Source: a bacterium (GTDB lineage Bacteria > Patescibacteriota > CPR2 > UBA1875 > CAIMLA01). Taken from it: 64,000 bases of DNA. Of this stretch, positions 2,893 through 27,015 are shown piece after piece. Positions within the stretch are counted from its first letter, which is position 1; each line of letters opens with the position of its first letter. The position numbers and the translations under genes are program-made. Location: contig JBAXUE010000001.1 in assembly GCA_037129835.1 (NCBI GenBank), forward strand, positions 174,858 through 238,857. The letters are read 5' to 3'. The notes beneath the pieces were generated by a model. The model had not been told where the DNA came from, ran no database searches, and saw only the letters and a program-made list of their open reading frames with translations.

Positions 2893-3737
2893 TGAGAGAA
2901 AATGAGATATACGATAACGAAGGCCGTATTCTAAAAGCTGGTGGAATTATTATTAATAACAATAATGATATTTTGTTATATTTGAACGAAGATAGAGGAT
3001 TTGCATTCCCTAAAGGCCATTTGGAACAAGGTGAGACTTTCGAAGAGTGCGCGCACAGAGAAGTAAAAGAAGAAACAGGCTTAGATGTAGTGATTGTTGA
3101 TTATTTGTCACCAATTATCTATTTGAACCAGCACGATAACAAAGAAGTCTATATTGAGATGTTTCTAATGAAGCCATTGAATTTGGAACTTTCAACAGAG
3201 CTAAACGACGACACCCTACTGTGGGCAGATTATAATACTGCTGTTGTAAATTTGAAGCCCAATAATAAGCACCAGCATAATAGTCTTTCAGACTATTTGG
3301 TTAAAAATAAAGACAGTATATATAGAGAAAAGGTTCTTTCGGCCAACGGAGAAGTAATGAAGGCGGGAGCTTTGATTTATCGAGATTGTGGAAAAGAATT
3401 TTTACTAACCCATAGAATAAAAAGGGCGGATTATAGTTTCCCGAAGGGACATCTAGAAGCTGGTGAGTCATTTGAAGAAGCTGCAAAAAGAGAGATTATC
3501 GAAGAAACAGGCTGTGCCGTTAAAATTATCAAACCACTCGAAGATTTTAACTATGAATATCCCGAGTCTGGTAAAGTTTGTGTCAGGATGTTTTTAGCAG
3601 AGTGCGTGAGTCAAGGGGATAATCACGAATCATTTGAATCCCCGGTGTGGGTAAAGCGGGAAGAAGTAGAATCTACACTTACTTATGAAAATCTTAAAGA
3701 ATATTTTAAAGAGAATACAAAGGATCTTTTTTTATGA
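2892..3737 (+). CDS. Tandem-domain NUDIX hydrolase
   Basis: Two Nudix boxes: GHLEQGETFEECAHREVKEETGL and GHLEAGESFEEAAKREIIEETG. Confidence 0.75.
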   Translation: MRENEIYDNEGRILKAGGIIINNNNDILLYLNEDRGFAFPKGHLEQGETFEECAHREVKEETGLDVVIVDYLSPIIYLNQHDNKEVYIEMFLMKPLNLELSTELNDDTLLWADYNTAVVNLKPNNKHQHNSLSDYLVKNKDSIYREKVLSANGEVMKAGALIYRDCGKEFLLTHRIKRADYSFPKGHLEAGESFEEAAKREIIEETGCAVKIIKPLEDFNYEYPESGKVCVRMFLAECVSQGDNHESFESPVWVKREEVESTLTYENLKEYFKENTKDLFL

Positions 3738-4999
3738 AAATTGCAGTAGCTATGTCGGGTGGGGTCGATTCTTCTGTCGCTGCGGCATTGATGGTCGATA
3801 AATATGGTACACAAAATGTTTTCGGCGTGACTATGAAACTATTTTGTTATGGTGAAAGCGGCGGTAGCGATAAAAGTTGTTGTTCGTTAGACGCGATAGA
3901 CGATGCAGCTATGGTTTGCAAACAGCTTGGGATAAGTCACTATGTTGTAAATCTAGAAAAAGATTTTGAGGCAGAAATAATAGATAATTTTATTTCAGAA
4001 TATAGTCAAGGAAGGACCCCAAATCCCTGTGTGAGATGTAATAGTCTCATTAAATTCAAGCATTTATTACGAAAGGCACAGGAGCTGGGTGCTGATATTC
4101 TAGTTACGGGTCATTATGCTCGGATTCTCCCTTCTTTGTCATCCCTGGTAGTTAACCCAGGGATCTCTAGCGGCCCCTCTGACTTGTCTAGCGAAGCCTT
4201 GGTCATCGACTCTGAGGTGAGCCTCATCGCTCAGACTCGAAGGGCGAAGATGGAAGAAGATCCTCATTTTCGTAAGGATGACAACGTTTTGGGACTTTTC
4301 TGCGGTCTTGATTCCGCCAAGGATCAATCATATTTCCTTTACAATCTTGATCAATATCAGCTGGGCCACATTTGGTTCCCACTAGGGGAGCTCACAAAGC
4401 CGGAAACACGTAAATTGGCTGAGAAATATGCTCTTAAAACGGCTCAAAAGACAGAATCGCAGGACATTTGTTTTGTAACAACTACCACACAGGATTTTTT
4501 ATCCAATAAGATAAAGATAAAAGCGGGAAACATAGTAGATAAAGCCGGGAATGTACTCGGTAAACACGACGGGATACCTTTTTATACCATAGGACAGCGA
4601 AAAGGTCTCGGAGGAGGGTTTACAGAGCCAATGTATGTTACAGGGTTCGACCTTGTAAGAAATGATCTCGTCGTGGGAAGAGAAGAAGAACTATATGATG
4701 ATGAGATGATGGTGAGTGATATACATTGGACTTATGGAGCACCCGATTTACCCACTGAGATGGAAGTAAAGATTCGGTATAATTCTAAAGCGAGTTCCGC
4801 TTCACTAAATACTTCGAGCGAAGTTGAGAAGTCACGGTCTGATAGTTCTCGATCTGGCAACTGCCGGACTTCGAACAATAAAGTATTAATTAGATTCCAA
4901 AAACCTCAAAAGGCCATTACCCCTGGGCAAACTGCTGTTTTTTATATAAAAGAAGAGGTCGTTGGCGGAGGCATTATTGAGTCTACTAGAAAATATTGA
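3734..4999 (+). CDS. mnmA: tRNA-specific 2-thiouridylase MnmA carrying an in-frame ~50-aa insertion
   Basis: N-terminal PP-loop motif MKIAVAMSGGVDSSVAAALM, plus a CxxC motif, GHYAR, DQSYFLY and a C-terminal TPGQTAVFY. The protein is about 60 aa longer than typical MnmA because of two extra segments. Confidence 0.9.
   Translation: MKIAVAMSGGVDSSVAAALMVDKYGTQNVFGVTMKLFCYGESGGSDKSCCSLDAIDDAAMVCKQLGISHYVVNLEKDFEAEIIDNFISEYSQGRTPNPCVRCNSLIKFKHLLRKAQELGADILVTGHYARILPSLSSLVVNPGISSGPSDLSSEALVIDSEVSLIAQTRRAKMEEDPHFRKDDNVLGLFCGLDSAKDQSYFLYNLDQYQLGHIWFPLGELTKPETRKLAEKYALKTAQKTESQDICFVTTTTQDFLSNKIKIKAGNIVDKAGNVLGKHDGIPFYTIGQRKGLGGGFTEPMYVTGFDLVRNDLVVGREEELYDDEMMVSDIHWTYGAPDLPTEMEVKIRYNSKASSASLNTSSEVEKSRSDSSRSGNCRTSNNKVLIRFQKPQKAITPGQTAVFYIKEEVVGGGIIESTRKY
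4134..4285 (+). mobile_element. About 150-bp palindromic insertion element with 9-bp terminal inverted repeats (TTGTCATCC ... GGATGACAA), inserted in-frame in mnmA
   Basis: Terminal inverted repeats at 4135-4144 and 4277-4285. Inner hairpin ATCCCTGG-N7-CCCAGGGAT at 4141-4164, plus a second imperfect hairpin TCGACTCTGAG-N13-CTCAGACTCGA. It encodes LSSLVVNPGISSGPS...EEDPHFRKDDN, which is absent from MnmA homologues at the GHYAR/LDSxKDQSYFLY junction. A second copy lies at 16242-16318. Confidence 0.6.
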
Positions 5000-5035: not shown

Positions 5036-5066
5036 ATCAGGTTCTCTTACAGAGAGCCTGTTTTGA
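5036..5066 (+). terminator. Hairpin CAGGTTCTCT-tac-AGAGAGCCTG followed by TTTTG; putative mnmA terminator
   Basis: Inverted repeat with a T-run, 37 nt after the mnmA stop. Confidence 0.45.
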
Positions 5067-5108
5067 TAGATACGGTTCGTACCATTTATTCAGTAGGAGG
5101 TGAGTACA

Positions 5109-5372
5109 GTGAAGACTGTCCGCGAAAGAGCGCTTCCAGAAGAAGTGGTGGTAGAGGCTCTTAGTCTTACTACCGCTGAGTCAGCGAAGGTAAGTACGCT
5201 AGTGCGCTGGTTGCAGTGCAACAAAAAATGGCGTCGTGACCGAGACAACAAATTTTCTGAGAAGCAACTAGGGGACGCTCTACGTGCTACCGAAACGGAC
5301 TTTCCTGATTATGAGCGCCGAATGGTACTTATGAACAAGCTGCTGGTACTAGATCAGGAGCGAGGGGGATGA
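5109..5372 (+). CDS. Hypothetical protein in a GC-rich island (GTG start after AGGAGGTGAG)
   Basis: ORF of about 88 aa. RBS AGGAGG at 5094-5099. GC content is clearly above the flanks. No recognisable motif. Confidence 0.4.
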   Translation: MKTVRERALPEEVVVEALSLTTAESAKVSTLVRWLQCNKKWRRDRDNKFSEKQLGDALRATETDFPDYERRMVLMNKLLVLDQERGG

Positions 5373-5392
5373 TCTTCTTGTACGAAAAACTG

Positions 5393-5456
5393 AATCGGCG
5401 GACAAAAGTAGCCGCCTGAGGGTCGCAGTGCGCAAGTGCTAGCGACCCTCGTCCTT
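5393..5456 (+). terminator. Two consecutive GC hairpins (GGCGG-N9-CCGCC, then GAGGGTCGC-N15-GCGACCCTC) followed by TTTTATT
   Basis: Inverted repeats are directly visible, with a T-run after the second hairpin. Confidence 0.5.
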
Positions 5457-5457
5457 T

Positions 5458-5486
5458 TATTGACGAAACATACATTTGGGTATAAA
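5458..5486 (+). promoter_or_regulatory. Sigma70-like promoter TTGACG-17-TAAAAT upstream of the 5547 ORF
   Basis: The -35 and -10 hexamers are separated by 17 nt. They are followed by a GGAGG RBS before the ATG at 5547. Confidence 0.4.
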
Positions 5487-5546
5487 ATACATCACCGTAG
5501 TCGGAGGGCAGAAAGCTGCCAGCCATTATCTATCTGGAGGTATGAT

Positions 5547-5972
5547 ATGGGGATGTCACTGCGCGACAAAGTTCTAGACAGAGTACAGTCGGCCGTCTCG
5601 GCAAGATCGCCAGTAATCATTGCTTACGATTTTGTCAGCGCCTACGAAATCGCTATTGATAGTGGCGACAATGAAGGCGATGACCTTGCCTGTGCTGTCG
5701 GTACTGCTCTTGAGGAGTATTTACTAGAGAACAGTCCAGACTTCGCGGCGAATATCGCTGTGAGGGCGTACATCTCTGCAATCGACATCGGTGGGGATAC
5801 CGGAACAGAGATTTGCAATCAGCTCAGAGTCATCTATACACGCGCGTGTGAAAAGTCAGGGGAGTTTCTTGCTTCTCTGCATTACCACCAGAACGGAATC
5901 GGTGCTGACCTGGCATACTTGGGTCGGAATGGCTGTACGGTTCGACCAAAATTCGGTTTTGGCCGTTCCTAG
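5547..5972 (+). CDS. Hypothetical protein (about 141 aa) in the GC-rich island
   Basis: ATG preceded by CTGGAGGT. The listed ORF start at 5436 lacks an RBS. Acidic and Ala-rich. No recognisable domain. Confidence 0.45.
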   Translation: MGMSLRDKVLDRVQSAVSARSPVIIAYDFVSAYEIAIDSGDNEGDDLACAVGTALEEYLLENSPDFAANIAVRAYISAIDIGGDTGTEICNQLRVIYTRACEKSGEFLASLHYHQNGIGADLAYLGRNGCTVRPKFGFGRS

Positions 5973-6052
5973 CTCGACTACGGTAGGTGCCCCTTTTGGG
6001 GGCGCCTACCAAGAGCATTGAGAATAAGCTATATTTAAGATAATATATTGAT

Positions 6053-7948
6053 ATGAGAATAAACGAAGTAAGAGATAAATATATAAAGTTCTATATAGAT
6101 AGAGGACACACCGAGATTGAGTCTTCTTCTTTAATTCCCCAAAATGACCCTACGACACTGTTTACTGGTTCGGGCATGCAACAGCTTATGCCATTTTTGC
6201 TCGGGACATCACATCCTAAGGGGAATATGTTAGTCGATTCGCAAAAATGTTTTAGAGCTGACGATATCGATGAAATTGGGGACAATAGGCACACTACTTG
6301 CTTTGAAATGCTCGGAAATTGGTCACTTGGTGAATATTTTAAACAAGAGCAATTATCTTGGTTTTTTGAATTTATTACAAAAGAGCTTTTGCTCGACCCA
6401 AATCGTTTATATGTCTCTGTCTTTATCGGTGATAAAGCTAACAATATACCCAAAGATAATGAATCCGTCGACATTTGGCAGAAACTTTTTCAAGAAAAGG
6501 GGATCGAGGCAAAGGCAGTAGAGATTGGTTCTGAAGAAAACGGTTATTCTGTCGGCATGCAAGGCGGTCGAATTTTTTATTATGATTCAAAGAAAAATTG
6601 GTGGAGCCGTGCTGGAATCCCTTCCGAAATGCCTTCTGGTGAGCCAGGCGGTCCTGACAGCGAAATGTTCTATGAATTTACTGAGATTGAGCACGACAAA
6701 TCTTATGGGGAACATTGTCATCCAAATTGTGATTGTGGAAGGTTTATGGAGATAGGGAACTCGGTTTTCATGCAATATATTAAAAATACCGATGCAACTT
6801 TTGCACTTCTGCCAAAACAAAATGTGGATTTTGGCGGTGGTTTAGAGAGGCTTACAGCAGTCACCGAGGGACATTCAGATATATTTAAAACTGATATTTA
6901 TCAGAATATTATGGACAAGATTGCCGAAATAACAGGGAAAAAATACGCAGATGCAGATTTTGATACGATAAAGTCATTCCGTATCCTAGCAGATCATATC
7001 AAGGGAGCGACATTTATCATTGCAGATGGAATAAAGCCGTCAAATCTGGGGCAAGGATACGTAGTCCGTAGATTAGTAAGAAGAGCTATCCGGTACGCGC
7101 AGCTCGCTGATATTTTTGAGCAAAATATGTGTTCAGAAATCGCAAAAACGGTAATCGCAGATTATAAAGAGAATTATCCAGAGTTGGCAAAAGCCGAGAA
7201 TACAATCATTTCTGAGCTCAATATCGAGGAAAATAAATTTTTGAAGACTCTAGAGAGCGGACTTAAGGAGTTCGAGAGATTAACTAGAAGCAGGGACAGG
7301 CTTTCTGGCAAAGAAATATTTGAACTATTTGCTTCCCATGGCTTCCCTTTTGAGCTTACTAGGGAATTGGCCGATGAAAAAGGGATAACACTAGACGAGG
7401 TAGGCTATAAAATCGAGTTTGAGAAACATCAAGAGGTTTCCCGTGCAGGTATCCACGAAAAGAAATTTGCCAGTGGACTAGAGAACAAGGAAGACCCGAA
7501 AATTATTCAATATCATACCGCCGCACATCTGATGCTAGCGGCTCTAAAAAAAGTATTAGGCGAAGGTGTTCATCAGAAAGGTTCTAATATCACCGCTGAA
7601 CGTATCCGTTTTGATTTTTCCCACCCTGAAAAGATGACAGATGTAGATAAGAAGGCAGTTGAGGACTGGGTAAACGATAAGATATCTCAAAATCTTGAAG
7701 TATTTATGACTGAAACTAATCCAAAGACTGCTAAAGAAAAGGGCGCAGAAGGAGAATTTTCTGATAAATATGGCGATAAAGTTACTGTATATAGCATTGG
7801 AGGAGATATCGATAGTGCTGAAGCAGTTTCAAAAGAGATATGTACTGGACCTCATGTGAAGAATACTTCAGAGATTGGCCGCTTTAGAATAAAAAAAGAA
7901 GAGTCTTCTAGTTCTGGCGTACGGAGAATTAAAGCGATTTTAGAATAA
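6053..7948 (+). CDS. alaS: Alanyl-tRNA synthetase, short form lacking the C-Ala domain
   Basis: Class II core LIPQNDPTTLFTGSGMQQ. Editing-domain motifs HTAAHLMLAAL and CTGPHV. The protein ends at 631 aa, right after the editing domain. Confidence 0.9.
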   Translation: MRINEVRDKYIKFYIDRGHTEIESSSLIPQNDPTTLFTGSGMQQLMPFLLGTSHPKGNMLVDSQKCFRADDIDEIGDNRHTTCFEMLGNWSLGEYFKQEQLSWFFEFITKELLLDPNRLYVSVFIGDKANNIPKDNESVDIWQKLFQEKGIEAKAVEIGSEENGYSVGMQGGRIFYYDSKKNWWSRAGIPSEMPSGEPGGPDSEMFYEFTEIEHDKSYGEHCHPNCDCGRFMEIGNSVFMQYIKNTDATFALLPKQNVDFGGGLERLTAVTEGHSDIFKTDIYQNIMDKIAEITGKKYADADFDTIKSFRILADHIKGATFIIADGIKPSNLGQGYVVRRLVRRAIRYAQLADIFEQNMCSEIAKTVIADYKENYPELAKAENTIISELNIEENKFLKTLESGLKEFERLTRSRDRLSGKEIFELFASHGFPFELTRELADEKGITLDEVGYKIEFEKHQEVSRAGIHEKKFASGLENKEDPKIIQYHTAAHLMLAALKKVLGEGVHQKGSNITAERIRFDFSHPEKMTDVDKKAVEDWVNDKISQNLEVFMTETNPKTAKEKGAEGEFSDKYGDKVTVYSIGGDIDSAEAVSKEICTGPHVKNTSEIGRFRIKKEESSSSGVRRIKAILE

Positions 7949-15835: not shown

Positions 15836-16756
15836 ATGAATATCAAGGAAGCTAGTATTTGGGCTAGAAAAGTCCTGAAAGATAACGAAGTTGACTCGCC
15901 AGAGGCATCTGCGGATTTTTTGCTCAGGCAACTTTTAGCCATTGATAAAGCTCAGATGCTGACTCACCCAGAAGAGAAAATACCCAAGCTACAAGAGCTT
16001 AAGTTTCGCCGCTGGGTAAAGAAAAGATCAAAACACGAACCAGTCTGGTATATTACTGGGAAAATTGAGTTTATGGAGCTAGATCTCGCTGTTAATCAAA
16101 GTGTTCTTATCCCGCGACCTGAAACAGAGTTATTGGTTGAGAAAATACTCGCTCAATACAAAATACAAAATACAAAATACAAAATATTAGATGTCGGTAC
16201 GGGTAGTGGGACTATAATTCTTTCTTTGGCAAAACATCTTCCTTTGTCATCCCTGGTCGCAAACCCAGGGATCTCTAGCGTTCCCTCCGAAGGAGATCCT
16301 CGTGTTCGTAAGGACAACATATGCTTTTTTGCCTCTGATATTTCTTCAACAGCTCTGGATACAGCTAAGAAAAACAAGAAAAATAATAATATTGCTCCAG
16401 AAATCAAGTTTGTGGAAGGGGATTTGTTCGGTCCTTGGGCGGGAGAAAAATTTGATCTTGTCGTTGCAAATCTACCATATGTGCCTCACGAAGACATGGC
16501 TACTCTCGCATTTGATTTAACTCATTATGAGCCAAGAGTCGCCCTGGATGGAGGTATCCTAGGTCTTGAAGTCTATAAAAGATTTATTGAAGAATTGCCA
16601 AATTATTTAAATCCTGGCGCGAAAGTATTTATGGAAATCGGTTATGATCAGGGAAGATATATCGAGGATTTTGTACATAAATATTTGCCGAAAGCAAAAG
16701 TAGAAACACTGGGTGACTACCGCCAAATTGATCGAATAGTTGTCATAGAAACCTAG
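15836..16756 (+). CDS. prmC: Release-factor glutamine methyltransferase PrmC/HemK with an in-frame ~25-aa insertion
   Basis: LDVGTGSGTI SAM motif and the NLPY (NPPY-type) catalytic motif. Extra segment LSSLVANPGISSVPSEGDPRVRKDN lies between the SAM motif and motif II. Confidence 0.85.
   Translation: MNIKEASIWARKVLKDNEVDSPEASADFLLRQLLAIDKAQMLTHPEEKIPKLQELKFRRWVKKRSKHEPVWYITGKIEFMELDLAVNQSVLIPRPETELLVEKILAQYKIQNTKYKILDVGTGSGTIILSLAKHLPLSSLVANPGISSVPSEGDPRVRKDNICFFASDISSTALDTAKKNKKNNNIAPEIKFVEGDLFGPWAGEKFDLVVANLPYVPHEDMATLAFDLTHYEPRVALDGGILGLEVYKRFIEELPNYLNPGAKVFMEIGYDQGRYIEDFVHKYLPKAKVETLGDYRQIDRIVVIET
16156..16183 (+). repeat. Heptanucleotide tandem repeat (ATACAAA)x4 inside the prmC coding sequence
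   Basis: Four perfect 7-nt units, translated as QNTKYKIL. Confidence 0.8.
16242..16318 (+). mobile_element. Internally deleted (~75 bp) copy of the palindromic in-frame insertion element, inside prmC
   Basis: Shares CTTTGTCATCCCTGGT-N5-AACCCAGGGATCTCTAGCG and GATCCTC-N4-TTCGTAAGGA(TG)ACAAC with the mnmA copy, both nearly identical. Lacks the central ~80 bp. Confidence 0.55.
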
Positions 16757-16816
16757 AAAACAAAACATATACGTGCTAAAATCTTTTCGTCATTCTGAAC
16801 TTGTTTCAGAATTCTA

Positions 16817-17765: not shown

Positions 17766-17880
17766 TCCAACAATTCAAGAACCAACTGGTTCCAATGAGA
17801 TAACAGGCAGTCCACCATAAATTTAATGGCTAATTGGAGCCATTAAATTTATATACCCAATTTTCAGTTGGAACCTTTTT
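17766..17880 (+). repeat. Intergenic structured repeat, copy a (nested inverted repeats, GTCCACCATAAATTTAATGGCT core)
   Basis: Shares CAGTCCACCATAAATTTAATGGCTA-N-GAGCCATTA...TTTATATACC-AA-TTT-CAGTTGGAACC with 25425-25530. Outer inverted repeat GTTCCAA/TTGGAAC. Inner palindrome TTTAATGGCT/AGCCATTAAA. Confidence 0.6.
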
Positions 17881-19796: not shown

Positions 19797-19836
19797 TAAC
19801 TATATCTTTGAGTTCTTCCAAGCCATCAGTTCTTTA

Positions 19837-19930
19837 ACCAATAAGTTCCAACTATTTTCGAAGTAGTCCACCATTTTGACCACATCGAAAATACTTGGAA
19901 CCAAGGGGAGACACGAAAGTGTCTCTTTTG
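19837..19930 (+). repeat. Intergenic structured repeat, copy b, ending in the terminator hairpin GGAGACAC-gaaa-GTGTCTC + TTTTG
   Basis: ACCAATAAGTTCCAACTATTTTCGAAGTAGTCCACCAT shared with copies c and d. Internal inverted repeat GTTCCAACTATTTTCGA / TCGAAAATACTTGGAAC. Terminator at 19907-19930. Confidence 0.6.
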
Positions 19931-19982
19931 TATTCTAAAAGGTGTTTTTATGGGTTATTATATACTCAGGTATAGGGGGAAC

Positions 19983-22823
19983 ATGAAAATAGCTAAATTT
20001 AAACTTGCTTACCTTGGCCTTTCGGTGCTTTTGCTTATCTCAGCAACTTTTGTTGGTTTCAAATTTCTTTATAATAATTCTGCAGGTCAGCTAGCCAAGG
20101 GCTCATTTTATATTAGCCAATTTATTGACTCGAACTGGAAGGAAATCTACGACGAGTCCTTTGGGGTCGAATATCAAACTAAAACTTTTACTATTGCACC
20201 ACGTGACGGCAAGGTTCAGATACAGATAAATCAAAAGAATATTCCTTATTCGGATGTTGAATTTGTCCATTTGAATGCTTGCGGGGTGAATATTACTCCT
20301 GAATACGCAAAGTATGCGGTTACCGGTGAGAGCGTCCTAGCGGATATATCGGCCGATGATAATAACGTAATCGTCGCCCACGAGAAGCCAGTTGAAATAC
20401 TTTGGAACATGCCAATTGGTTGTACAGGCACAGCCACCATGACGATGAAGGCGAACGAGTACAGCTCAGCTGAAGCAGGAGCAATTCGCTTTCCATACTC
20501 TGGTGCTCCTAATCAGACTTATCAATTTATAAACAACGGAACCATCACCATAGACGGTAACATCAAGGAAGTTGACGGCATCGCCACTCCAAACTATTCA
20601 CCTACTTGGCTATCTGGCACTGGCCATCCTGGAGGTAGTACATATATCTATATGCAAGATGATGCAAAATACGTCTATCTTTCATATGACATCACCGGTG
20701 ATAATACCAATGAGCACGGACCTGACTGGCTCAAGATCATGGCGCTAAATACTAAAGACGGTAAAGAAAAAGAATATAAGATAAATGATGATCCAGGCCA
20801 ATACGGTCAATGTGGTTTTGGTCTGACTGGTAAAGTTTCATACAAACACCAGACATGTGAGGCAAAGATACCAAAGGCAGATCTGGTTGGTAGTCATCTC
20901 TCATTCTACTCGCTGTATTATGGAACTTTTTCAGGACCTCAGTTTAATAATTATCCTAGCGTTATAACAAGCCCATCAAATACACTGCCGGTTGTGAAGG
21001 GAATGGTATCTGACAATAGCGAAACTCCGGGAAACATCGGGGCTGTAAAATTCCGTGTCAGAGATAGAAATTCTTACTCGACCAGAGAAGAAGACAGTGG
21101 GGCATATGATGGTGTTTGCACTGCAGATGATGGAGTATTCTCTGGGTCTGAAGAGAATTTCACCTGTACTGCCACCGAAGCACTCTCTTATGGCATTAAC
21201 TATGCCTTTGATCTGGAGCTAACTCTGGAGGGCAGTAGTGTCCCGAATGCATACGGAGAGGCCGATTTTACACTCTACGATAATGATTATTCAATCGTTC
21301 ATGATTATAGCGACACCCTGGGTAGTTATCCAATTGGTCAATTTGTAAAGAATGGCAACAAGCTATACGGTGCTACAACTAGTGGTGGTGAACATGGCTA
21401 TGGCAATATATATTCGATGAACATAGACGGTACAAACATGACCAGTATTCACTCCTTTGATGGACAAGGTGATGTAGCTGGCGGTTACACAGTCAGTAAT
21501 TCCTTGGTTTTATCGGGTTCATATCTGTATGGTATGGTCCAAGGTGGAGGCGATGTCGATCAGGGCGGTGTATTCAGACTGAATGTAAACGGAAGCGACT
21601 ATTCAATGATTCACTCATTCAGCGGGTCCACCGACGGATACACCCCCTATGGTTCACTGACTGTATTAGGGAGTCGTCTGTATGGTATGAATGTCAATGG
21701 GGGAATAAATAGTCGGGGAACTATTTTTGGACTGGATATGGACGGGACCAACTTCTCGGTTATTCATAGTTTTGCAGGTCCTGAAGGTGGTAATCCTTTT
21801 AGCACCTTGATTGAGTCGGGTGGCGTTCTGTATGGTATGACAAACTCCGGTGGACTTCAGGATAATTTTGGTGTAATCTTTTCTATCTTGCCATCCGGTG
21901 CCGACTATCATATTTTACATTCATTTTCTGCATCTGATGGCTTTCAGCCGAGTGGGTCATTAACGCTCATTGGGGAAACACTGTTTGGGGCGACTCAGAG
22001 TAGCGGAGCAGAAAGTGGCAATGGGATTATCTTTAAAATCCAGAAGTCTGGGGCCGACTATTCTATCATTCATAATTTTGGCGATGATTTAAACGATGGG
22101 GACCTACCAACATATTCGTCGCTTCAGCTTTGGGGTGACAAACTATATGGAGTCACTGACATCGGGGGAGATAATAACATGGGGACAATATTCTCTATAA
22201 ATACGGATGGTACTGGCTACTCGCTGTTACATGAATTCGCTGGAGGCCCCTATGATGGTCAAACGGGTAGATTCTCGGTGCTCATTTCTAATGGCGTGCT
22301 TTACGGTACGACTTTTTATGGTGGCACATCAAGTCAGGGTGCCATGTTCAAAATGACACTTCCTGGGGCTGTCAGTAACCCAGGCAGTAGCGGTCCAGTA
22401 TTCACGAATCTACCCAGCGCTACCACGGTTATCAATATTACAGATGGTCAGACCATCACTACAAATCCCTATACTTTAAAAGTGAAGCCAACAGATGCCG
22501 ATGGTATTCAAAAGGTTGAGTTTTATATCGATAATATCCTTATCTGTACTGATACTACCGCCGATGTTGATGGCGTATATTCATGTGATTGGGATACTAG
22601 TAAATATCACTCAGATGTTAAAGTCTTGGCTTATGATACGAATGGCAATGTATCCACTGCACTAACTCGTTCGGCTACTGTGAGGCTGGCCAGTACGACT
22701 ACAGGAACATTGCCAGAGACAGGTGGTAAGAATAATCTAGGAAACATCTTATGGCTCATCGGTTTACTCGGCGTAGCGTTCGTAGGTGCTCGTTCAACAC
22801 TAAAGGATAAGGGAGGGGAATAA
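19983..22823 (+). CDS. Large sortase-anchored surface protein: signal peptide, N-terminal domain, about 8 tandem ~40-aa beta-propeller-like repeats, Ig-like domain, LPETG sorting signal
   Basis: Repeats of the form G-x-LYG-x-T-x-GG-x4-G-x-[IV]F-x-[IL]-x3-G-x3-S-[IV]-[IL]HSF (GloVer-like). C-terminal LPETGG followed by a hydrophobic segment and a basic tail (ARSTLKDKGGE). ATG at 19983 preceded by an AGGGGGAAC RBS. Confidence 0.75.
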   Translation: MKIAKFKLAYLGLSVLLLISATFVGFKFLYNNSAGQLAKGSFYISQFIDSNWKEIYDESFGVEYQTKTFTIAPRDGKVQIQINQKNIPYSDVEFVHLNACGVNITPEYAKYAVTGESVLADISADDNNVIVAHEKPVEILWNMPIGCTGTATMTMKANEYSSAEAGAIRFPYSGAPNQTYQFINNGTITIDGNIKEVDGIATPNYSPTWLSGTGHPGGSTYIYMQDDAKYVYLSYDITGDNTNEHGPDWLKIMALNTKDGKEKEYKINDDPGQYGQCGFGLTGKVSYKHQTCEAKIPKADLVGSHLSFYSLYYGTFSGPQFNNYPSVITSPSNTLPVVKGMVSDNSETPGNIGAVKFRVRDRNSYSTREEDSGAYDGVCTADDGVFSGSEENFTCTATEALSYGINYAFDLELTLEGSSVPNAYGEADFTLYDNDYSIVHDYSDTLGSYPIGQFVKNGNKLYGATTSGGEHGYGNIYSMNIDGTNMTSIHSFDGQGDVAGGYTVSNSLVLSGSYLYGMVQGGGDVDQGGVFRLNVNGSDYSMIHSFSGSTDGYTPYGSLTVLGSRLYGMNVNGGINSRGTIFGLDMDGTNFSVIHSFAGPEGGNPFSTLIESGGVLYGMTNSGGLQDNFGVIFSILPSGADYHILHSFSASDGFQPSGSLTLIGETLFGATQSSGAESGNGIIFKIQKSGADYSIIHNFGDDLNDGDLPTYSSLQLWGDKLYGVTDIGGDNNMGTIFSINTDGTGYSLLHEFAGGPYDGQTGRFSVLISNGVLYGTTFYGGTSSQGAMFKMTLPGAVSNPGSSGPVFTNLPSATTVINITDGQTITTNPYTLKVKPTDADGIQKVEFYIDNILICTDTTADVDGVYSCDWDTSKYHSDVKVLAYDTNGNVSTALTRSATVRLASTTTGTLPETGGKNNLGNILWLIGLLGVAFVGARSTLKDKGGE

Positions 22824-22828
22824 ATACT

Positions 22829-24829
22829 ATGAATTTTAATTTAAAAAAGACATTCAGCAATATTTTAGTTTTTGTTTTTATGTTTAATTTTTTAATGCCA
22901 GTAGCCCAGGCTGCAGCGCCAGTACAAAGTGTTTTTTTATACGAGCCTGGGGTTAGTCCAACCAATATTCAAATAGACTTTTATCCAAACGAATGGAGCG
23001 ATGTAATAGATTATTGGACGGTTGAATACAAAAAAAGTACCGATACTACCTGGACATCTATGCTATCCGCAAATAACGGGGGCAGCAATTGGGCGCGCAT
23101 TACCGGCTTGTTGCCGGGAACTTCATATGATATTAGGGTTTATGCGACAAACAGTGATGGACAGGGTCCATATAGTGATATTACTACAGTTTCTACCCCG
23201 TCATATGGGCCTGCTGCAGTAGATTTTTTTGGCAGTGGAAGAAACGACTATGGTGAGGATTGGACCGAGTCTAATAGCGACAATACAAATACGTCTTTTA
23301 GTAATCCTAGCGGTGTCGCCATAGACAAGAATCATCATAGGTTATTTGTTGCTGATGGTGGTGGCGATGGTGATCGTAATCATAGAATTATGGTCTTTAA
23401 TCTGGATAGTAATAATGAACCCCTGGACCACATAGCAGATGCGGCAATTTACTCTGTGGATATAGATGGTGATGAGTCGCTTTTGAGAGCGCCAAGAAAT
23501 GTCTTGTACGATAATGACAGTGACACCTTATTTATAGCTGATAGTGATAACGGTAGGATTGTGGTTGTAGATGGCTCCGAGGATCTTATTGTCGAGGGTA
23601 CAGAAGACGACCCTTGGGCTATCCCAGTGGCACAGAACATCTTGGGAGCTGGCGATTTTGATTACCCTCTTGGTATGACCCTAGACAGTGTAAATGGCAG
23701 ATTGTTTGTTGCAGAGAAAGATAAAACAAAAGGTAGTGTTTACGGCAGTGTAAACGTATTTGACGTAAGACCTGCAGGAAGTACTGCAAAAACGATGTGT
23801 GGTGTAACTACAACGGGCATCGAAGATACGACTCCTTCATGCAGCTTGTGGGCAAGTGATGCACTTAGACCTAGAGATGTTGCCTTTGATAGCGTAGGTC
23901 AAGTTCTTTATGCTGCGTATGCAGACCAAAATAGGGTTTTGTCCTTTGATGCTAGAGCTGAGGAAAGTGAAAATAAAACAATGTGTGGAGTGACTACGAC
24001 TGGACTACCCACTAGCGATACAACTGCCATGACCCCATCTTGTGTTTTGGGTCAAACAAATATGGATGATACCGATGGCGATACCACTCAAAGTGGACTA
24101 GATGTTCCCAGAGGTTTGTGGTTTGATCAAGATAACGACCGCCTGTTTGTAGCTGATTTGGGTAATAACCGCGTTCTACAGTTTAATGGTCTGTCATCTA
24201 TGACTAATGGCATGGATGCGACTGCTGTTTTTGGACAAGGGGCCTTTACACAAGACAATAGTCAAACAACTCAATATGAGCTCGATAGTCCAAATGCAGT
24301 TACTATAGACCCTATCACCAAGCGTTTATATGTTAGCGATAACCAAAACAATCGTATAATGGTCTTTGCCTTAGAGGATCCACCAGAGCCACCAGCAACC
24401 CCACCAACTTTCGTCGATTTACCTGGTACAAGCTCTGCTATTAACGTCACCGAAGGCCAAACGATTACAACCAACCCATACACCATAAAGGTAAAACCAA
24501 CAGATACTGACGGTATCAAGAAAGTCGAGTTCTATATCGATAATATTCTTATTTGTACCGATACAACAGCAGATAGTGACGGTGTCTACTCCTGTGATTG
24601 GGATACCTCGAAATACCACTCTGATATCAAAGTGCTGGCCTATGACACAAATGACAATGTATCAACAGCCCTAACTCGCTCTGCTACTGTGAGACTAGCT
24701 AGTACTACTACAGGAAAGCTTCCAGAAACTGGCGGTAATAATAATCTAGGAAACATCTTATGGCTCATCGGTTTACTCGGCGTAGCTTACGCAAGCAGAC
24801 GCCTGATGCTCAAAAAAATAAATATTTAA
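22829..24829 (+). CDS. Sortase-anchored surface protein: signal peptide, fibronectin-III-like domain, about 6 NHL-type beta-propeller repeats, Ig-like domain, LPETG sorting signal
   Basis: Signal peptide MNFNLKKTFSNILVFVFMFNFLMPVAQA. NHL-like repeats (SNPSGVAIDKNHHRLFVADGG...NHRIMVF, NNRVLQF, NNRIMVF). C-terminal 130 aa are about 90% identical to the C-terminus of the upstream gene, including LPETGG. Confidence 0.75.
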   Translation: MNFNLKKTFSNILVFVFMFNFLMPVAQAAAPVQSVFLYEPGVSPTNIQIDFYPNEWSDVIDYWTVEYKKSTDTTWTSMLSANNGGSNWARITGLLPGTSYDIRVYATNSDGQGPYSDITTVSTPSYGPAAVDFFGSGRNDYGEDWTESNSDNTNTSFSNPSGVAIDKNHHRLFVADGGGDGDRNHRIMVFNLDSNNEPLDHIADAAIYSVDIDGDESLLRAPRNVLYDNDSDTLFIADSDNGRIVVVDGSEDLIVEGTEDDPWAIPVAQNILGAGDFDYPLGMTLDSVNGRLFVAEKDKTKGSVYGSVNVFDVRPAGSTAKTMCGVTTTGIEDTTPSCSLWASDALRPRDVAFDSVGQVLYAAYADQNRVLSFDARAEESENKTMCGVTTTGLPTSDTTAMTPSCVLGQTNMDDTDGDTTQSGLDVPRGLWFDQDNDRLFVADLGNNRVLQFNGLSSMTNGMDATAVFGQGAFTQDNSQTTQYELDSPNAVTIDPITKRLYVSDNQNNRIMVFALEDPPEPPATPPTFVDLPGTSSAINVTEGQTITTNPYTIKVKPTDTDGIKKVEFYIDNILICTDTTADSDGVYSCDWDTSKYHSDIKVLAYDTNDNVSTALTRSATVRLASTTTGKLPETGGNNNLGNILWLIGLLGVAYASRRLMLKKINI

Positions 24830-25380
24830 GACTTATCCTTGCTGGGGTTGGGGTTGCTTCGCTTCTTGCTTTTGGTATTTTCTTTCCATGGAAACCATTT
24901 GCCGATAACTTGTTCAACAAGAATGGACTAAACATCACCATGTCTAAAGAAGAAGAGGGATCCTTTCAAGATTTTGGTATAGAGATACCGAAGCTTGATG
25001 TAAAAGCGCCGGTTATGGCCAACGTAAATGGTGATAATAAGTCAGAATACAACAAGTCACTGACGAAGGGACTCGCTCACTACAAGGGGACCTCTCTACC
25101 TGGCGAAAAGAGCAATATCTTTGTTTTTGGTCACTCAAGTAGCGACACAGACGGTGGACGTTACGCTAAAATATTTAGAAAACTAGACGATCTAAAAAGT
25201 GGCGATAAGATAACTGTGTATTATAAGAGCAAGAAACATGAGTACACAGTAACCGATAAGAAAGTTGTCGAGGCCGACGACCTTTCACCTCTCAACCTGA
25301 CTGATGGTGAACAGCTAACTTTGATGACCTGCTGGCCGATAGGAACCGTAGAAAAGAGATTGATAGTTATCGCGAAATAG
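24760..25380 (+). CDS. Sortase (transpeptidase), N-terminal TM anchor
   Basis: Catalytic His in IFVFGHSS, TLxTC motif LTLMTCWP, and a downstream Arg. The ATG at 24760 has an AGGAAA RBS and overlaps the last 70 nt of the upstream LPETG gene in another frame. Confidence 0.8.
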   Translation: MAHRFTRRSLRKQTPDAQKNKYLRLILAGVGVASLLAFGIFFPWKPFADNLFNKNGLNITMSKEEEGSFQDFGIEIPKLDVKAPVMANVNGDNKSEYNKSLTKGLAHYKGTSLPGEKSNIFVFGHSSSDTDGGRYAKIFRKLDDLKSGDKITVYYKSKKHEYTVTDKKVVEADDLSPLNLTDGEQLTLMTCWPIGTVEKRLIVIAK

Positions 25381-25424: not shown

Positions 25425-25530
25425 TTTACCAACAAGTTCCAACTATTTTCGACGCAGTCCACCATAAATTTAATGGCTATTTAGAGCCATTATTTTTATA
25501 TACCAAATTTACAGTTGGAACCTTTGAGCG
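25425..25530 (+). repeat. Intergenic structured repeat, copy c
   Basis: Near-identical to copy a over CAGTCCACCATAAATTTAATGGCTA and TATATACCAAATTTACAGTTGGAACCTTT. Confidence 0.6.
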
Positions 25531-26916: not shown

Positions 26917-27015
26917 CCACCAATAAGTTCCAACTATTTTCGACGCAGTCCACCATATATTTAATTGCCGATTCGGGTCATTATTTTTTTGTACTTATTT
27001 TTCGCTGGAATGAAA
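26917..27015 (+). repeat. Intergenic structured repeat, copy d (3' half degenerate)
   Basis: ACCAATAAGTTCCAACTATTTTCGACGCAGTCCACCATATATTTAAT is shared with copies b and c. The right arm has diverged. Confidence 0.5.

Follow-up and report, generated by a model that had tools for sequence, protein, structure and literature searches.

The 64-kb stretch of DNA analyzed here (contig JBAXUE010000001.1, positions 174,858 to 238,857; hereafter the window) encodes the tRNA 2-thiouridine(34) synthase MnmA in an open reading frame (ORF) of 421 aa at 3734..4999 on the + strand, and this gene carries an extra segment of 147 nucleotides (nt) at 4137..4283 (+ strand). The segment is a copy of a palindromic repeat dispersed over otherwise unrelated contigs, and a second copy lies in prmC. 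The unpaired tags, stems, tails, and head-to-head layout of its hairpins match the published definition of CGTC-tagged repetitive extragenic palindromes (REPs) (Di Nocera, De Gregorio, Rocco 2013, BMC Genomics 14:522, PMC3733652); on this basis, the mnmA/prmC element very probably represents a new family in the CGTC-tagged REP superfamily, which includes the Rickettsia palindromic elements (RPEs) RPE-4 and RPE-6. Loci retrieved from other contigs are cited below by L numbers and proteins by P numbers. An earlier note on this DNA, made from its letters, had singled out the mnmA segment, and we report how its claims fared alongside the results.

The insert reads LSSLVVNPGISSGPSDLSSEALVIDSEVSLIAQTRRAKMEEDPHFRKDDN and occupies MnmA residues about 135-184, with a GC content of 0.52 against about 0.38 in its flanks. 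ORF 3734-4999 stays open through it with zero stops, as the earlier note had observed; the length, described there as close to a multiple of three, is exactly 147 nt, or 49 codons. Two NCBIfam MnmA models, NF001138 and TIGR00420, score above their cut-offs, and their match to the protein is interrupted by the insert, leaving two stretches. The segment is absent from homologues, as had been claimed: the solved MnmA chains 9hln, 2hma, and 2der, from three species, align to residues 2-131 and 180-417 (187-417 for 2der) and leave residues 132-179 without a counterpart, and eight close Patescibacteria orthologues (P0004, P0007, P0008, P0009, P0012, P0016, P0023, and P0047) lack the insert. The possibility of an ancestral family feature, raised in the same note, is not borne out, no homologous segment being present in MnmA of unrelated bacteria (the PDB chains). 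In an AlphaFold2 model of the window's MnmA, the predicted local distance difference test score (pLDDT) averages 82.9 and falls to 47-62 over residues 141-180, which are flanked by strands E129-133 and E186-190. The insert is thus modelled as an excursion from a beta-hairpin, a floppy surface loop, in keeping with the extra loop proposed earlier. As a matter of annotation, the insert splits domain matches; NCBI names the window's MnmA (P0001) only [quoted passage not shown] and the splitting of the model match by inserts may be the cause.

The closest named relatives of MnmA and PrmC are metagenome-assembled genomes designated "Patescibacteria group bacterium." The window has a GC content of 39% and carries 49 of its 54 long ORFs on the + strand. 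These features alone are our grounds for calling the host Patescibacteria-like. An identical 421-aa MnmA is encoded on six contigs, and three retrieved loci, from three samples, equal the window sequence save for alignment-edge differences at the end of one short contig. Since the same MnmA locus recurs in three samples, the insert is not an assembly artefact.

The mnmA insert resolves into two inverted hairpins separated by a long spacer, a delimitation drawn from alignment and sequence comparison. The left REP monomer (4137..4167, +) consists of a TGTC tag (4137-4140), a perfect 8-bp hairpin stem, ATCCCTGG (4141-4148) / CCAGGGAT (4157-4164), enclosing an 8-nt loop, and a CTC tail (4165-4167). 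The right monomer (4257..4283, +) is inverted, with an AAG tail, the stem ATCCTCAT (4260-4267) / GTAAGGAT (4272-4279) around a TTTC loop, and a GACA tag (4280-4283). The enlarged spacer between them (89 nt; 4168..4256, +) holds a third, nested hairpin (4206..4240, +) in which TCGACTCTGAG (4206-4216) and CTCAGACTCGA (4230-4240), each 11 nt and 91% complementary, are separated by 13 nt; compared by eye and without a tool alignment, the same hairpin also lies inside the L006 copy in the opposite orientation. A spacer module of the mnmA copy, CTTGTCYAGCG...GAAGATG, is common to L009, L015, and L003:6915-7019. The 8-bp perfect and 11-bp imperfect hairpins reported in the earlier note are therefore both confirmed. 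Its 9-bp terminal inverted repeats, TTGTCATCC (4136-4144) / GGATGACAA (4276-4284), are likewise 100% complementary; however, they are not transposon ends but tags plus stem bases, and they are not accompanied by a target duplication.

The second copy lies in prmC, which encodes the release-factor glutamine methyltransferase (ORF at 15836..16756, +; 306 aa; TIGR03534, 251.6 bits). It is a canonical head-to-head REP dimer at 16245..16319 (+) of 75 nt, or 25 codons, reading LSSLVANPGISSVPSEGDPRVRKDN and lying in the same frame as the mnmA copy. Its left monomer spans 16245-16275 and its right monomer 16293-16319 (both +); the left tag is TGTC (16245-16248), while the right outer tag has decayed to AACA. 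In a BLAST search, 4134-4182 aligned with 16242-16290 at 88% identity, and the 29-mer TTGTCATCCCTGGTAGTTAACCCAGGGAT of the mnmA insert matched 16244-16272 with 3 mismatches, where 0 such matches were expected (100 shuffles), which rules out chance similarity. Under covariance model R1, built on 16 copies of the family, the prmC copy scored 86.1 bits (E = 7e-22) and the mnmA element 77.8 bits (E = 1.7e-19). The earlier note was right that prmC holds a second copy and had taken that copy to be internally deleted. The prmC copy matches the canonical unit of the family (~75 nt; TGTCATCCCTGGTCGCAAACCCAGGGATCTCTAGCGGCCCCTCCGAAGGAGATCCTCACTTTCGTAAGGATGACA), whereas the mnmA copy combines the same ends with a spacer of 89 rather than 17 nt. 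Judged from this comparison, the prmC copy is the canonical unit and not a deletion derivative, and the mnmA copy an expanded cluster with a larger spacer and a third hairpin.

A dispersed family of paired hairpins

A metagenome scan for the left hairpin, with the pattern TCATCCCTGG-N6-10-CCCAGGGATCTC, returned 14 stretches, 13 of which had the full element. Model R1 recovered the scan copies together with further, more divergent ones in the same loci. Altogether, scan and model yielded about 25 related copies in other contigs, some intergenic and others inside seven further genes, so that the further copies sought in the earlier note do exist, in many unrelated contexts. The 6.3-kb contig L012 alone has five superfamily copies, and the window only two family copies by R1. 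The loci come from several projects and range from 36 to 49% GC. The element, at 52-55% GC against a 38-39% background, is the main DNA similarity between loci and window (85-94% identity); the other matches are only a tRNA and one short intergenic repeat in L004/L005.

Searches of viral contigs, phage records, and plasmid records did not find the family. A scan of genome contigs gave a Chloroflexota contig with the left hairpin only, in GC-rich intergenic DNA, which we take to be unrelated, or a remote relative of the superfamily at best; L014 is likewise a match of the left hairpin only. A word-indexed protein search with the 57-aa insert peptide returned no candidate although the host protein is in the collection, and its result is uninformative. 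When the 32-aa prmC peptide was searched exhaustively against 1.84 billion cluster representatives, a single match came up (P0241, E = 1.6e-5); because any particular insert is seldom present in representatives chosen at 50% identity, host genes cannot be counted in this way. In Rfam 15, only tRNAs reached the gathering threshold and nothing lay over the element at E <= 1 to 5; a tRNA or transfer-messenger RNA (tmRNA) identity was rejected after tRNA/tmRNA and Rfam searches. Similarly, the insert peptides matched no NCBIfam family at E <= 1, in a release whose content of RPE models is unchecked.

We compared two structures for the family. A tRNA-like cloverleaf with paired ends (GGATCTC/GAGATCC) has 3 compensated pairs; every one of them falls in a local hairpin, and the two long-range helices have none. 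In the two-hairpin model, 94% of cells are paired and 6 pairs have compensatory changes, a count reached by 1 of 500 shuffles, while slid controls gave 0-1 pairs; the covariation score is 0.242 for two hairpins versus 0.158 for the cloverleaf. Given 6 versus 3 compensated pairs, we adopted the two-hairpin REP model in place of the cloverleaf. Each hairpin has an outer unpaired TGTC/CGTC tag, an 8-bp stem opening with A-T and then T-A, and a 3-nt tail, CTC/GAG. The left stem is 100% paired over 19 family members, with two positions compensated. The right stem, ATCCTCAY/GTAAGGAT in inverted orientation, is paired at 84% and compensated across the family, for example ATCCTCAC/GTAAGGAT versus ATTCCCGC/GCGGGAAT. 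All family copies are arranged head to head with tags outside, and their spacers, from 17 nt (prmC) to 89 nt (mnmA), can hold hairpins. The canonical 75-nt unit folds better than shuffles (z = -3.6 forward, -4.1 reverse), whereas the whole 147-nt mnmA segment does not (z = -0.4 to -1.0), and the window's two copies are the least well folded on the sense strand (z = -1.0 to -1.7).

We asked how copies are accommodated inside genes by examining ten of them, nine family members and one copy from a related subfamily. The hosts, whose identities were confirmed by domain or family matches, comprise at least nine genes: MnmA and PrmC in the window, PheT (L012), a MiaB-like enzyme (L009), a DHH phosphoesterase (L006), a DNA-alkylation-repair protein (L015), the C-terminus of a WecG-family transferase (L003), Dus (L008, the related subfamily), and MnmA of L019, where two sites are occupied. 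The insertions fall between Pfam domains or in loops. All ten copies have lengths that are multiples of three (75, 147, 126, 105, 75, 105, 69, 105, 96, and 96 nt), while intergenic copies include lengths of 74, 76, 71, 68, 94, and 59 nt. Furthermore, all ten lie in the sense orientation and use one frame, LSSLVANPGISS...DPxxRKDD, that is, (L)SSLVANPGISS...DPx(F/V)RKDD. Retention of both frame and length argues for translation, since an excised sequence would need neither, and we infer that the insert is kept in the mRNA and translated as a disordered loop rich in Pro, Gly, Ser, and Asp. In-gene insertions would persist only where the protein pays no cost.

The consensus has three stop-free frames, with a grand average of hydropathy of -0.97 for the sense frame in use and -1.03 for one antisense frame. 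The antisense frame has no clear use; one possible case, in L013, precedes grpE or falls at its N-terminus. Relative to neighboring genes, intergenic copies are 8 sense and 6 antisense. Hairpins of the antisense strand are more stable (-34.2 versus -28.7 kcal/mol), which is one possibility for what lies behind the sense-only rule in genes.

Site turnover, movement, and rival explanations

The sites themselves differ in occupancy among orthologues. The MnmA loop after the GHYAR motif is empty in L026 (P0004) and many other orthologues, holds one singleton hairpin with a CCA tail, TGTCATTCCTGGTCGCAAGCCAGGAACCCA, in L025 (P0003), a head-to-head dimer with a long left loop in L019 (P0002), and the grouped element in the window. 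A second MnmA loop, in the C-terminal barrel, holds other dimers in L019, L025, and L026, and in the window a second, different palindromic insert (4811..4883, +) reading about SSEVEKSRSDSSRSGNCRTSNNK, of another repeat family. This insert has no counterpart in the PDB MnmA chains (pLDDT 38-51 over residues 361-380) and has the 22-mer pattern CTTCGAGCGAAGTYGAGAAGTC in common with the element at the prmC site of L022 (P0124). A viral match to this 22-mer, set in GC-rich surroundings, looks fortuitous. Similarly, the PrmC loop after motif I holds the present family in the window and P0121, different families in P0122/P0123, P0124, P0129, P0135, and P0154, and no segment in P0125-P0128, P0131, and P0138. 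By these sequence comparisons, the insertion site is not special to this family; in other lineages, both MnmA loops and the PrmC loop hold other REP families.

The most informative comparison is provided by L021 (P0122; 1175-2086), which is 95% identical to the window over 2.2 kb and about 97-98% identical outside one replaced block. That block, 16241-16324 in prmC, reaches 4-9 nt past the tags on both sides and is cleanly replaced in L021 by a different CGTC-type element, CGTCATCCTGAG...CTCAGAATGAC. A swap within near-identical flanks indicates that, at a given site, elements are exchanged on a shorter time scale than that of host-gene divergence. Considering this swap, the singleton, dimer, cluster, and empty states of the mnmA site, and flanks in which pyrimidines precede and purines follow the element, loops of housekeeping enzymes in these small genomes might serve as landing pads where different REP families of the CGTC type insert, are swapped, and are pruned while strains diverge, although we consider this doubtful. 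If landing pads reflected an active, site-selective, and strand-aware mechanism, they would offer a first handle on the movement of CGTC REPs and RPEs; if they reflected the mere survival of harmless insertions, they would be much less notable.

We can only offer an analogy for the mechanism of movement. Among 25 copies, drawn from the window and loci L002-L019, not one is flanked by the direct repeat that a target-site duplication would leave. On its left, the element is bordered by 12 nt that are pyrimidine-rich and depleted in G (0-3 of 25 copies per position), and on its right by 12 nt that are purine-rich and depleted in C; this bias could represent a target preference or weakly conserved outer arms. 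Hairpin-directed copying of single-stranded DNA by an enzyme supplied in trans is the route we favor, if tentatively, by analogy with REP-associated tyrosine transposases (RAYTs) acting on GTAG REPs and with TnpA of IS200/IS605. Such an enzyme would read tag and hairpin on single-stranded DNA and copy the unit, as a nonautonomous element, to new sites. The copies themselves show that spacers gain and lose modules and that families replace each other at one site between close strains. Alternatively, short-homology recombination or gene conversion between copies might be at work, which would also explain the prmC swap.

Other origins have to be weighed against a mobile REP family. The element is quite improbably a classical miniature inverted-repeat transposable element (MITE), that is, a deletion derivative of an insertion sequence (IS) on whose 8-9 bp terminal inverted repeats a DDE transposase would act, leaving target duplications. 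Its ends, TGTCATCC / GGATGACA, are perfect inverted repeats that start with TG and end with CA, and it is short, dispersed, and AT-poor relative to its host. However, those repeats are the tag and stem of two inverted REP hairpins whose local stems covary while end-to-end pairing does not, none of the 25 copies has the flanking repeat, neither the window nor 232 kb of loci contained a partner IS or a transposase, and singleton half-elements exist (L025, at the mnmA site), as expected of REPs and not of MITEs. The stems covary and include G-U pairs, the element is 85-94% identical between genomes whose flanks have no DNA similarity, and some copies immediately precede tRNA genes (L004/L005) or lie in what are probably the 5' leaders of dus and grpE, all of which would suit a selected RNA or DNA module (an mRNA stabilizer, RNase site, terminator or attenuator, or protein-binding site) with the coding frame as a side effect, as would the uniformly sense orientation within genes and the view that REPs of other bacteria act as RNA elements (PMC3733652). 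We nevertheless consider such a module rather unlikely: intergenic orientation is unbiased, host genes and positions are unrelated, orthologues are empty or carry another family at the same site, and the window copies fold worst, with the outer tag lost in prmC, a pattern more in keeping with decay than with maintenance.

That the segment is not inserted DNA but a lineage-specific protein feature, an ancestral or convergent low-complexity loop of MnmA and PrmC, is barely credible. The two MnmA sites and the PrmC site do vary in length among orthologues, and the segment is predicted to be disordered, but the same nucleotides occur in intergenic DNA, which already refutes the idea, and in seven other unrelated genes; moreover, the DNA of the copies is far more alike than the host genes are, has a GC content of 0.52 versus 0.38, and shows compensatory changes in its palindromes. 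It is equally hard to credit an intervening sequence removed after transcription or translation, intron-like or a mini-intein, even though the insert breaks a conserved motif junction in an essential gene. All gene-internal copies keep a length divisible by three and a stop-free sense frame, needless if they were excised, no Rfam match appears at E <= 5, 25-49 aa is too short for an intein, and the peptides have no NCBIfam match.

Several observations also weigh against the interpretation we prefer, a translated CGTC-type REP family moved in trans. Recruitment by the exact left-hairpin pattern means that the sample of copies favors conserved members and gives no copy number. A tblastn search with an Escherichia coli RAYT against the 232 kb of sequence returned no match with E below 1, none of the window's minus-strand ORFs is a transposase, and no transposase was found in the 232 kb of loci; CGTC REPs as a class are without a known transposase, and the survey that defined them tied none to it (PMC3733652). 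What speaks for translation is frame statistics, and the sense-only rule within genes is explained by neither stops nor hydropathy, since an antisense frame is open and equally hydrophilic. Finally, the hairpins depart from the published form, in which loops are 4-5 nt in the four described families, with exceptions noted, and tails are 3 nt with the consensus CCA (PMC3733652). The right loop is 4 nt here, but the left loop is 8 nt, and ~27 nt in the L019/L012 variants; the tail is CTC/GAG rather than CCA, which is found in the L025 singleton at the mnmA site.

Other features of the window

Hairpins resembling the element recur near tRNA genes. A half-element-like hairpin, GTCATTCTGAA-CTTGT-TTCAGAAT, lies at 16790-16815, directly 5' of a tRNA-Ala gene (16818), and at L004 806-881 and L005 1437-1512 a full element stops about 11 nt before a tRNA gene that runs in the same direction. 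Taken together, these cases indicate that REP hairpins recur in tRNA leaders. A separate intergenic repeat family of ~100 nt occurs 3' of +-strand genes at 17781-17878, 19816-19900, 25428-25525, and 26919-26994; its ends are GTTCCAACT and AGTTGGAAC, and it contains an AT-rich inner hairpin, CCATAAATTTAATGGC...GCCATTAAATTTAT. Positions 19866-19938 are 90% identical to L004 1383-1454, just 3' of a tRNA.

Between mnmA and the alaS-like ORF at 6053 lies a GC-rich island of ~1 kb (5040-6030, +; GC about 0.50 versus 0.38 in its flanks). Its predicted RNA folds at -364.9 kcal/mol, against -320.7 +/- 7.3 kcal/mol for 20 shuffles (z = -6.1). No Rfam match was found at E <= 5, and its ORFs at 5100-5372 and 5436-5972 have no Pfam, PHROGs, or PADLOC match. 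The syntenic locus L019 has only about 450 bp at this place. The region may represent either a large structured RNA or a small island of foreign genes. Farther along, two adjacent large surface-protein-like ORFs (19950-22823 and 22829-24829) both terminate in the same LPETG-type sorting region and are followed by a sortase gene (24760-25380); a direct repeat of 338 bp at 80% identity (22440-22777 / 24449-24786) covers their C-terminal ends.

Comparison with known repeats

CGTC-tagged REPs carry a terminal unpaired CGTC, often TGTC, with a CCTC variant also allowed, on stems of 8-9 bp that almost always open with complementary A-T residues, and they mostly form head-to-head dimers with tags outside and spacers of 20-100 bp, some of which contain stem-loops; heterodimers are common (PMC3733652). 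The family described here has TGTC (4137-4140, 16245-16248) or GACA (4280-4283) as terminal tags in the window and CGTC in L007 and L009, and it has the 8-bp stems opening with A-T, tails of 3 nt though of another sequence, the head-to-head dimers, and the hairpin-bearing spacers. Intragenic CGTC dimers encode 20-30 aa and clusters 43-82 aa, in hosts that are often tRNA- or nucleic-acid-related enzymes (PMC3733652), and both peptide lengths and host functions are alike here. The right monomer of L008, CGTC-ATTCCCGC-GAAG-GCGGGAAT, is a textbook CGTC hairpin and encodes DSRLRGND. That peptide (L008, L019) and VIPAKAGIQ...LLQGNDK (L012) resemble two of the published REP-encoded peptides SFPRKRES, VIPAKAGI, and DSRFRGND, listed in the supplement of the survey, the last being that of Rickettsia conorii CGTC-1 (PMC3733652); the likeness is of DSRLRGND to DSRFRGND and of the L012 peptide to VIPAKAGI. 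The stem and spacer sequences differ, as does the host phylum: the survey lists Proteobacteria, Chlorobi, Bacteroidetes, Spirochaetes, and Thermotogae as hosts of CGTC REPs and no Patescibacteria (PMC3733652), whereas the present host is Patescibacteria-like.

The likeness to RPEs proposed in the earlier note proved closer than it had claimed, in that the element fits the definition of CGTC-tagged REPs and this superfamily holds R. conorii CGTC-1, which is RPE-6, and CGTC-4, which is RPE-4 (PMC3733652). In a 2024 review, the original RPEs (RPE-1 and others; Ogata et al. 2000) are described as palindromes of ~100-150 bp placed in frame in unrelated housekeeping genes, with one conserved peptide frame per family and insertions compatible with the protein fold (PMC10969869). 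The same review calls RPE-like elements outside Rickettsia only "conceivable" (PMC10969869). Insertion in frame, the use of a single frame, unrelated host genes, and positions compatible with the fold (a loop in MnmA) are alike in the present family; the host phylum differs, the basic unit is 75 nt and resolves into two REP hairpins, and the peptides have no NCBIfam match.

REPINs are doublets of GTAG REPs moved by RAYTs. They resemble the present element in that the unit is an inverted hairpin pair with a short spacer, dispersed, mostly intergenic, and free of target duplication, but the tag here is TGTC/CGTC rather than GTAG, and no RAYT was found in window or loci. MITEs are marked by terminal inverted repeats of greater length, by duplication of the target site, and by a parental IS, none of which was seen here in the window or loci. 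Gene-internal bacterial MITEs (Correia, ERIC, BOX, and QMITE1) are nonetheless small, structured, nonautonomous repeats that sometimes form in-frame fusions (PMC10969869).

The earlier note knew of no description of such elements in this kind of genome, and our literature searches, a limited set that cannot prove absence, likewise returned no earlier report from this bacterial group. What is already known is therefore the kind of element; what is new is the host group, the hot spots at which one site receives various elements, and the swap of cassettes at strain level. Rickettsia is the best-known source of palindromic repeats that sit in frame within essential genes, and here such repeats have colonized loops of tRNA-modification and translation enzymes in an uncultivated, small-genome, Patescibacteria-like lineage. 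For protein evolution, such a repeat is a ready source of new surface loops, and close strains that differ only in the element at the prmC site provide a natural experiment on the movement of CGTC REPs, the superfamily that links the present family to RPE-4 and RPE-6.

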